Positions 11,600 to 11,719 of a stretch of DNA of 25,150 bases are shown here, one piece after another; the stretch's first letter is position 1; every line of letters starts with the position of its first letter. Location: IMG/VR virus record IMGVR_UViG_3300008050_000286. The stretch is one strand, 5' to 3'. The DNA comes from a virus. Both the position numbers and the translations under genes were made by a program. The notes under the pieces are model-generated. The model was not told the origin of the DNA, ran no database searches, and was given only the letters and a program-made list of their open reading frames with translations.

Positions 11600-11719
11600 G
11601 CCGACGTCGTCGTAAAGGGGGCGGCTCCCACCGATAGGCAGCACAGCCTCCGGGTCGATGTAAAAACTTCTGCTGGTGTGCTCTGGCATTAGGTCGCGGT
11701 TCGATTCCGCCGTCGGTGA
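11600..11719 (+). other. tRNA-Leu-like gene with a ~35-45 nt internal insertion (119 nt end to end); intron-containing or disrupted tRNA
   Basis: 5' GCCGACGT and 3' T-arm-CGTCGGTG-A mirror the ends of tRNA-Leu at 164-247. The interior does not fold as D/anticodon arms. An alternative 91-nt fold uses 5' CACCGAT at 11629. Confidence 0.3.

Follow-up and report, generated by a model that had tools for sequence, protein, structure and literature searches.

The element and its place in a phage tRNA array

We analyzed a 25,150-nucleotide stretch of viral DNA (IMG/VR record IMGVR_UViG_3300008050_000286), referred to here as the window, which carries 41 tRNA genes in 25 kb, all of which were placed on the + strand by ARAGORN. 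Our subject was the DNA at positions 11600 to 11719, referred to here as the element, which occupies the gap between a tRNA-Asn(GTT) gene that ends at 11592 with an encoded CCA and a tRNA-Gln(CTG) gene that starts at 11727. A preliminary description had presented the element as a tRNA-Leu-like gene with an internal insertion. As described below, the ends of the element are of tRNA-Leu ancestry, it has no decoding arm, and it has a well-defined four-way fold. All positions are those of the window, and nucleotide (nt) 1 of the element corresponds to position 11600.

The spacers around the element were 7 nt long on the 5' side and 7 to 8 nt long on the 3' side. Because adjacent tRNAs in the array are typically 4 to 7 nt apart, the element begins at a normal array distance. 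No σ70-like promoter or intrinsic terminator was found between the element and its neighbors. The element was 100% identical in the independent assemblies L001 and L002 and hence is not an assembly artifact, and the metagenomic contig carrying the window was recovered near-identically from NCBI (GCA_024449875.1 and GCA_024449815.1), Logan (SRR5467136), ENA (ERZ27249216 and ERZ27249009), and JGI (3300025133). A protein-coding reading was rejected; the minus-strand open reading frame (ORF) in question (93 aa, 11441-11722) overlaps tRNA-Thr and tRNA-Asn and was uncalled in every assembly. The parts of the element and the other features discussed here are listed in Table 1.

Table 1. Coordinates of the element, of other long tRNA-like frames, and of selected genes (window positions unless a related locus is named)
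Feature	Coordinates	Strand	Remarks
Spacer TTTTATA, 7 nt, T-rich, after the tRNA-Asn CCA	11593-11599	+	Presumed 5' leader for removal by RNase P
Acceptor 5' strand GCCGACG, Leu type (nt 1-7)	11600-11606	+	Pairs with 11711-11717; probability 0.93-1.0
Long arm (nt 9-61)	11608-11660	+	Minimum free energy (MFE) structure = centroid; pair probability 0.93-1.0
Alternative inner 5' strand CACCGAT	11629-11635	+	Could pair with 11712-11718; probability ~0
Linker UAAAAA, A-rich, single-stranded (nt 62-67)	11661-11666	+	
Hairpin 2 (nt 68-93)	11667-11692	+	Stem UGCUGG/CUGGCA, 6-nt loop UGUGCU; probability ~0.84
AGGUC, typical 5-nt variable-loop motif just 5' of the T stem	11691-11695	+	AGGTC at the same place in tRNA-Ile(GAT) and tRNA-Val(GAC)
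T-arm GCGG/CCGC, loop UUCGAUU (nt 97-111)	11696-11710	+	Probability 0.99
Acceptor 3' strand CGUCGGU (nt 112-118) and discriminator G	11711-11718	+	G1-U72 wobble
Spacer ahead of tRNA-Gln(CTG)	11719-11726	+	
Frame A, 151 nt	637-787	+	GAAGACG...CGTCTTC-A-CCA, canonical T-arm; below threshold in every tRNA tool
Frame B, 151 nt, four-way junction	14811-14961	+	CCGCCGG...CCGGCGG-A-CCA, canonical T-arm
Unit c, 89-nt spacer unit	8939-9027 (L013 2316-2404)		Closing stem: compensatory A-U to G-C in L013
Unit d, spacer unit	8257-8372 (L013 ~1215-1330)		Internal hairpin: compensatory G-C to A-U in L013
Slot-filling unit, 107 nt, between tRNA-Trp and tRNA-Glu	L134 6098-6204		9-bp closing stem, z score -2.58
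Class I frames: several different tRNA frames with a common ~54-nt module 3' of a canonical D-arm	L147 1186-1456; L158 1919-2188; L198 15785-16309		
Class II frames: ~49-nt D-loop insertion	L147 7679-7795; L158 7196-7311		
Class III frames: another common motif	L168 4735-4850; L173 4550-4665; L182 4587-4702		
Class IV frames: normal D and anticodon arms, ~60-nt variable region with conserved core	L167 1541-1661; L201 8430-8724		
Major vault protein (MVP) homolog, 896 aa	4139-6829		Pfam MVP_shoulder 4.7e-27; PDB MVP 4.6e-21 over residues 502-851
GIY-YIG/NUMOD3-like ORF, weak, subthreshold	9263-10036		Within the array
S-adenosylmethionine (SAM) methyltransferase ORF			Interspersed with array tRNAs
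RF-1/PCRF release factor (RF) homolog, short, 204 aa	13018-13632		PCRF and RF-1 domains
RNA-repair-type gene cluster (RlaP, metallophosphatase, Thg1-like)	16890-20216		Adjoins the array
Oversized tRNAs of short-armed types	1334-1420; 3357-3443; L010 14-295; L008 7595-7684		

The ends of the element derive from tRNA-Leu

The preliminary description had called both ends of the element near copies of the ends of the tRNA-Leu(GAG) gene (163-248). This was accurate for the 5' end, where the first 8 nt, GCCGACGT, were identical to those of the Leu gene; the other window tRNAs had at least 2 mismatches over the first 7 nt. At the 3' end, the claim held for the acceptor strand, where CGTCGGT matched the Leu sequence CGTCGGC at six of seven positions and paired with all seven 5' positions of the acceptor, including one G-U pair. 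It failed for the T-arm, in which only the generic loop GGTTCGANTCC was common to both and the stem differed, being 4 bp long. The excess over the 86-nt Leu gene was about 34 nt rather than the 40 nt or so counted earlier.

Among the 883 tRNAs that ARAGORN identified in the window and in 80 related phage loci, GCCGACG occurred as an acceptor 5' strand seven times, each time in a tRNA-Leu gene, and for an unrelated frame, the empirical chance of having the same 7-mer as one or more of 41 neighbors was about 2%. Thus, the Leu-type acceptor was not due to chance. The Leu relatives had the form GCCGACGU...CGUCGG(C/U)-A, and two of their six distinct sequences contained a G1-U72 wobble like that of the element.

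Three features of the 3' end are relevant to the interpretation. The discriminator of the element was G in the favored register and was A in all seven Leu relatives. CCA was not encoded after the element (the next bases are ACA), as was the case for about one-quarter of the window tRNAs. Finally, the T-loop was the consensus UUCGAUU, and the stem that carried it was the only one shorter than 5 bp among the T-arm motifs in the window; the acceptor/T stack was 11 bp instead of the usual 12 bp.

Predicted fold

The MFE structure and the centroid coincided, and both placed the acceptor, a 53-nt arm, the A-rich linker, a 26-nt hairpin, and the 4-bp T-arm in that order. The long arm was built from a 5-bp base stem (CGUCG/CGAUG) at the D-stem position, a 4-by-4 internal loop, a GC-rich upper stem, and a 7-nt loop, ACCGAUA. 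Hairpin 2 stood where a tRNA has its anticodon or variable arm, and it had no 7-nt anticodon loop. GUC (nt 94 to 96) was unpaired, like linker nt 62 to 67.

The earlier statement that the element has no clean D or anticodon arms was correct in the case of the anticodon arm. A textbook D-arm could be drawn in nt 10 to 26 (G10UCG/CGGC26, with G18G19 in canonical numbering), although it was 6.8 kcal/mol worse than the best fold and its probability was close to 0. An alternative 91-nt fold that starts at CACCGAT (11629) had also been proposed. The strand was indeed present and was able to pair with GTCGGTG. This register would give A as the discriminator and would lengthen the T stem to five positions, one of them a C-C mismatch, but the fold was 7.0 kcal/mol above the MFE.

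The element is not a working or intron-containing tRNA

At default stringency, ARAGORN made no call on the element with or without introns. At strongly relaxed thresholds, it forced the CACCGAT register into a "tRNA-Phe(aaa)" whose D stem was only 3 bp and had no GG, whose anticodon stem was mismatched, and which required an "intron" of 5 nt. The Rfam tRNA model (RF00005, gathering threshold of 29 bits) produced no match to the element at the gathering threshold, at an E value of ≤10 in a 201-nt stretch, or at an E value of ≤5 in the whole window, and the sole Rfam signal on the element was the 15-nt T-arm hairpin. This negative result was meaningful because the same model detected control frames of 115 to 121 nt from a metagenome scan; these frames were missed by default ARAGORN and were matched end to end by the Rfam model at 40 to 53 bits. 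ARAGORN -i identified two of the six control frames tested as tRNAs with introns of 35 to 49 nt.

We also used R2, a covariance model made from the D-loop-expanded tRNA frames of class II (Table 1), which acts as an insertion-tolerant tRNA detector. R2 recovered 282 tRNAs at 24 to 56 bits, including 13 in the window, and the element was not among them. With filters off, the element scored 10.3 bits, which came from the acceptor, the D-stem-like pairing at the base of the long arm, and the T-arm. Hairpin 2 was skipped as an insertion by both covariance models (as a 26-nt insert in the R2 alignment), and one T-stem pair was missing.

Deleting single segments did not uncover a tRNA either. Only 2 of 1,705 deletion variants were called by ARAGORN, and both were out of register, with the acceptor starting from nt 6. 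No anticodon stem with a 7-nt loop (U33 and a purine at position 37) was found in any register of the element; the available loops were ACCGAUA, which has C at 33 and U at 37, and the 6-nt UGUGCU. Thus, the element is not a working or intron-containing tRNA, and the suggestion of an intron in a functional tRNA-Leu did not hold. The preliminary view that the element is not a normal type II tRNA was borne out; because the covariance-model test for a type II tRNA was negative, the element is not an ordinary tRNA that callers simply missed.

The element retained two tRNA features, the 7-bp acceptor and the T-arm loop, on a T stem of 4 bp instead of 5 bp. Of the features expected of tRNA-Leu, the Leu-type acceptor was present and discriminator A73, a major identity element for leucyl-tRNA synthetase, was not. 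The RNA is probably not chargeable with leucine because the discriminator is G instead of A and because the acceptor/T stack is 1 bp short.

Several other assignments were rejected. A hidden tRNA-Tyr built on the AUGUAAA motif (nt 59 to 65) was impossible on inspection because no flanking stem can form. In the case of transfer-messenger RNA (tmRNA), ARAGORN -m was negative, Rfam matched just a 15-nt T-arm fragment at 7.4 bits, and position 3-70 was C-G. The YrlA/bacterial Y RNA model (RF02553), a family in which a tRNA-like module sits inside a Ro-binding stem, has a 69-bit threshold; its matches were weak (no more than 26.9 bits) and fell on ordinary tRNAs outside the element.

Search for homologs of the element

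R1, a covariance model of the element, was run over 87 sources comprising 1.59 Mb of related phage sequence. It matched the element alone (153 bits); the next matches scored 20 bits or less and covered stretches of 71 to 90 nt, the size of ordinary tRNAs. No homolog was found in viral contigs via RF and methyltransferase peptides or via an exact 25-mer and a two-anchor D-loop/T-loop pattern, and exact-protein look-ups identified only near-identical (≥99.4%) copies of the same phage. A pattern scan of metagenomes for the acceptor and T-loop yielded mostly chance matches in GC-rich coding DNA and a few unrelated tRNA-like frames, including intron-bearing tRNAs.

The element was absent from the contigs of RF homologs with 67 to 77% identity (L008 to L012). 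In L010 and L011, whose RF is 77% identical, the order Trp-Thr(ggt)-Asn...Gln(ctg) was kept and the slot contained an atypical tRNA-Ile(tat) and an unrelated 132-nt spacer. This 132-nt gap was rejected as a homolog; it had no sequence similarity to the element and its fold was not significant. The sole methyltransferase homolog (89% identity) was on L013 (ENA ERZ4201001, NODE_15785), a contig 88 to 92% identical to the window that stops at window position 11349, about 250 nt before the element, and a methyltransferase alignment in genome contigs returned nothing. Array cassettes varied between relatives: L012 was without positions 14731 to 15430, and L010 had other filler in the slot of the element. 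Because no homolog was found, there was no covariation to support the fold of the element and nothing to indicate purifying selection.

Other long tRNA-like frames in the window

T-arm motif and frame scans identified exactly three long frames with an acceptor and a T-arm in the window, all on the + strand, and none on the minus strand. The idea that the window has more than one tRNA frame enclosing foreign sequence was therefore confirmed by frames A and B (Table 1).

Frame A had a fold z score of -2.61, and none of 200 shuffled sequences folded as well. A direct repeat, GAAGACG(G)TAG, was found at 637 and 720, and the two copies bounded about 75 inserted nt. Removal of approximately 71 to 82 nt after the 5' strand produced a cloverleaf resembling tRNA-Lys(ttt), in which position 33 was C, and the inner unit (720-783) scored 28.4 bits with the Rfam tRNA model, slightly below threshold. 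In the case of frame B, the fold z score was -3.67, again with none of 200 shuffles as good, and no hidden tRNA emerged by any deletion. Frame B is placed between the suppressor tRNAs tca and cta, in the block (14731-15430) that is missing from L012. We also observed a tRNA that ARAGORN missed at 15046-15119, directly 3' of tRNA(cta) 14966-15040; it scored 33.9 bits with the Rfam tRNA model under laxer filters.

Two spacer units of the window, units c and d, were shared with L013, and each had a compensatory change there (Table 1). Two hairpins in unit c resembled T-arms; the loop of one of them was the variant AUCGUGG, which tRNA-Lys 9206-9282 likewise uses. Unit d was considered as a Leu-type frame since its ends, GCCGAC...GTCGGC, are common with tRNA-Leu, but this was rejected; the stem is broken in L013 and the T-loop is absent.

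Long frames in related huge phages

Across the 80 huge-phage loci, which contained 842 tRNAs, 33 frames of 100 to 139 nt with an acceptor and a T-arm were found, compared to 10 in a control with shuffled 3' strands (an approximately 3-fold excess). Fifteen of 30 long frames were still unexplained when introns were allowed, and ARAGORN -i identified six long frames in related phages as intron-tRNAs. Expanded frames of 104 to 136 nt recurred in other huge phages and fell into several classes (Table 1). In class II, two acceptor pairs were compensatory between L147 and L158. The middle arm of this class had a GUAA (GNRA) tetraloop in L158 where L147 has an Ile-type UAU anticodon loop, and the L158 copy is non-decoding because the tetraloop replaces the anticodon loop.

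L134, the closest relative in the viral database, has an MVP homolog and a unit that fills a slot between two tRNAs. This unit contained two T-arm-like hairpins (UUGG UUCGAUU CCAA and AAGG UUCGACU CCUU). Taken together, these frames show that the tRNA arrays of huge phages commonly contain long tRNA-framed RNAs, some of them conserved, which routine annotation overlooks.

Comparison with known systems

The tRNA cluster of phage T4 encodes two small stable RNAs of unknown role, RNAC and RNAD (PMC3014915, PMC9697503). In the T4 record, rnaD (119 nt, similar in size to the element) and rnaC (139 nt; species 1 RNA) follow tRNA-Arg with spacers of 1 nt and 6 nt. Like the element, RNAC lies head-to-tail on the same strand in a phage tRNA cluster at tRNA-like spacing. 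The rnaC fold had a terminal stem beside a canonical T-arm (CCGGG UUCGAAU CCCGG) and two arms joined by an A/U-rich linker comparable to that of the element, and it likewise had no anticodon arm. No Rfam family exists for rnaC. The T4 cluster also contains the GIY-YIG endonuclease SegB, and the array in the window contains the weak GIY-YIG/NUMOD3-like ORF.

The two RNAs also differed. There was no detectable homology, since R1 had no match in the T4 locus (L214). The terminal stem of rnaC is imperfect, with two U-U mismatches, and its T stem is 5 bp, whereas the element has a recognizable tRNA-Leu acceptor. Thus, the resemblance between the element and RNAC is one of kind and not demonstrated common descent.

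In Lak megaphages and other jumbo phages, tRNAs of excessive length have been described as containing "enigmatic introns" (Devoto et al. 2019, PMC6784885; echoed in PMC8346664 and PMC13037316). They resemble the element in that overlong frames enclose extra sequence and are missed by standard bacterial tRNA callers, but a tRNA type and an anticodon emerge from them when introns are allowed and none emerged from the element. The class II frames share with the element a D-stem around a long inserted hairpin, a non-standard middle arm, and a T-arm, and the class II model threads the element end to end. However, these frames are conserved between phages, have a 5-bp T stem, and score 143 to 147 bits compared to the 10.3 bits of the element, which has no relatives. 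The tRNA-like domain of tmRNA also combines an acceptor stem and a T-arm with no anticodon; the element is 120 nt rather than about 350 nt long and has no G3-U70, tag reading frame, or pseudoknots.

Gene content of the window and its relatives

The gene content of the window, together with the RF homologs in IMG/VR, which sit on viral contigs with tRNA arrays and lengths of up to about 600 kb, identifies its source as a huge phage or a mobile genome much like one; its translation toolkit is of the bacterial type. The array includes suppressor-type anticodons, namely, one tca (14731) and two cta (14966 and 16171). A DUF444 gene is present in the window, followed further downstream by SpoVR and PrkA. 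Relative L008 has a genuine full tmRNA in its array (5341-5740 region, 130.6 bits). The bacterial-type RF-1 in the window and this tmRNA suggest that the host is a bacterium, in which case no splicing endonuclease of the archaeal type would be expected.

The MVP homolog, which is related to the eukaryotic protein and is encoded within the tRNA array, had a 52% identical copy in L134 (776-3355, on a 110-kb viral contig) that is also upstream of the RF gene in the same placement. Phage MVPs were described in a 2023 preprint (10.1101/2023.11.10.566534), which draws no connection to tRNA arrays or small RNAs.

The relatives additionally encode RNA ligases, PTH2, and full tmRNA, and the RNA-repair genes in the window and its relatives would fit an arms race centered on tRNA cleavage. 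Upstream of the RF gene, an overlapping 37-aa ORF (12954-13067) had a weak PCRF match in another frame, an arrangement that recalls bacterial prfB with its programmed +1 frameshift. This overlap and the three suppressor-type tRNAs point to stop-codon recoding or its regulation. Some tRNAs of types that are normally short-armed (Thr, Lys, Asn, and Ile) measured 87 to 91 nt, a length that would fit variable arms as long as those of type II tRNAs (Table 1); for the one at 3357-3443, ARAGORN gave a 2-nt anticodon ("ga").

A processed tRNA-like RNA or a young relic

We favor, with moderate confidence, the view that the element descends from tRNA-Leu and encodes a tRNA-like RNA that is processed but does not decode, similar in kind to T4 RNAC. 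In the scenario that we propose, a tRNA-Leu gene would have lost its decoding half; its ends were kept, and its middle was replaced by the 53-nt arm, the A-rich linker, and the 26-nt hairpin. The element would then be co-transcribed within a polycistronic tRNA precursor, as suggested by its in-register place in an uninterrupted run of tRNAs on the same strand. RNase P, 3'-end trimming enzymes, and CCA-adding enzymes recognize the acceptor/T-arm minihelix. Because this is the part that the element retains, it would most likely be excised like a tRNA, which would yield a stable RNA of about 118 to 120 nt that is unable to decode. Whether such an RNA has a function of its own is a separate matter; if the element is indeed processed in this way, a function seems possible but doubtful. 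The RNA could be a decoy, a scaffold, or a partner of a phage protein, or it could be a young relic that is heading to decay.

Several observations weigh against a processed RNA product. The folding energy of the element was no better than that of dinucleotide shuffles (z score of -0.83, with 47 of 200 as good), so thermodynamics alone gives no sign of selection, and the z score of T4 rnaC was -4.57. Frames A and B have encoded CCA and significant folds, and the element has neither. The element had no homolog in the related phage sequence and was absent from the syntenic L010 slot. Its shortened T stem may impair processing and is readable as decay. Lastly, we infer both its expression and its processing.

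These observations are shared by the strongest alternative, namely, that the element is an inert pseudogene. According to this idea, the middle of a tRNA-Leu copy was destroyed by illegitimate recombination or repair, and the remnant is transcribed merely as a spacer and has no function; the intact ends would reflect youth and not selection. We regard this as possible, although unlikely. It agrees with the orphan status of the element, its absence from relatives, its insignificant fold, its 4-bp T stem, its G discriminator, its lack of CCA, and the coming and going of array cassettes in L012 and L010. The element also resembles tRNA pseudogenes and relics in its tRNA ancestry, in the loss of the anticodon arm and identity elements, and in being lineage-specific. 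However, the damage is non-random; the acceptor retains all seven pairs and the T-loop matches the consensus throughout, but nothing is left of the anticodon region. Nor is the decay diffuse, since both ends have survived intact and the replacement has a well-defined fold. In addition, similar frames in the array and in related phages are clearly structured or conserved. The minihelix of a pseudogene would probably be cut by RNase P anyway, and thus the two views differ mainly in whether the product matters. The evidence specific to the element (its lack of relatives, insignificant fold, short T stem, and lack of CCA) leans toward a young relic, and the structured or conserved siblings lean toward a functional class.

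Other explanations of the element

It has also been suggested that the interior of the element is a small mobile element or the scar of homing-endonuclease repair in a tRNA-Leu gene. This suggestion concerns origin, and we consider it improbable. The weak GIY-YIG/NUMOD3 ORF in the array, the presence of SegB inside the T4 tRNA cluster, and the direct repeat around the approximately 75 inserted nt of frame A are in its favor. However, searches of the window and of all fetched loci, about 2 Mb in total, recovered the 88-nt interior only once, and no direct repeats of 7 nt or more were found in or around the element. Thus, there is no transposon-like signature, and neither the multiple copies nor the target-site duplication of a miniature inverted-repeat transposable element was found. 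Moreover, the anticodon arm is missing and not merely interrupted, and nothing connects the GIY-YIG/NUMOD3 ORF to the site of the element.

A functional tRNA, for Leu or another amino acid, with a removed or tolerated intron or expansion as in Lak phages is very improbable, and this reading of the element is largely refuted. The megaphage precedent, the six long frames in related phages that ARAGORN -i called, and the nearby RNA-repair-type enzymes (RlaP, metallophosphatase, and Thg1) made the idea attractive. On the other side are the failure of any single excision to restore an in-register anticodon stem-loop, the negative ARAGORN -i and Rfam results obtained with tools that detected control intron tRNAs, the low R2 score, the G discriminator, and a presumably bacterial host.

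Eukaryotic vault RNAs are about 90 to 140 nt long and have tRNA-like box A and box B sequences and paired ends. A vault-RNA-like partnership of the element with the MVP homolog 5 kb upstream is barely credible: the MVP homolog is conserved in L134, but the Rfam Vault model (RF00006) had no match at an E value of ≤5 in the window or ≤10 in the element, and no conserved RNA was common to the two MVP-carrying loci, which leaves proximity as its sole support.

Significance

Taken alone, the element matters little, as it is an orphan gene for a tRNA-derived, non-decoding RNA or the relic of one. It does show how tRNA genes in phage arrays are remodeled, with the ends retained and the middle swapped. 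For annotation, such slots are passed over without warning by standard tRNA callers, and "spacers" of 100 to 150 nt in huge-phage arrays should not be presumed empty.

The class-level finding is more interesting than the element itself. A speculative extension, which we think unlikely as a whole, is that the element, frames A and B, the slot-filling units of relatives (e.g., L134 6098-6204), and the conserved expanded frames form one widespread, unrecognized class of phage "tRNA-framed" non-coding RNAs. In such a class, the minihelix would serve as a processing and stability cassette for variable functional arms, and the RNAs might act as decoys for host tRNA-targeting defense nucleases or tRNA-binding enzymes or as partners of MVP homologs. 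The roles of T4 RNAC and RNAD have been open for about 50 years. In the window, three long frames occur close to suppressor tRNAs and to genes for RNA repair, a release factor, and an MVP homolog, which suggests that the phenomenon is general in large phages, where it is open to comparative study.

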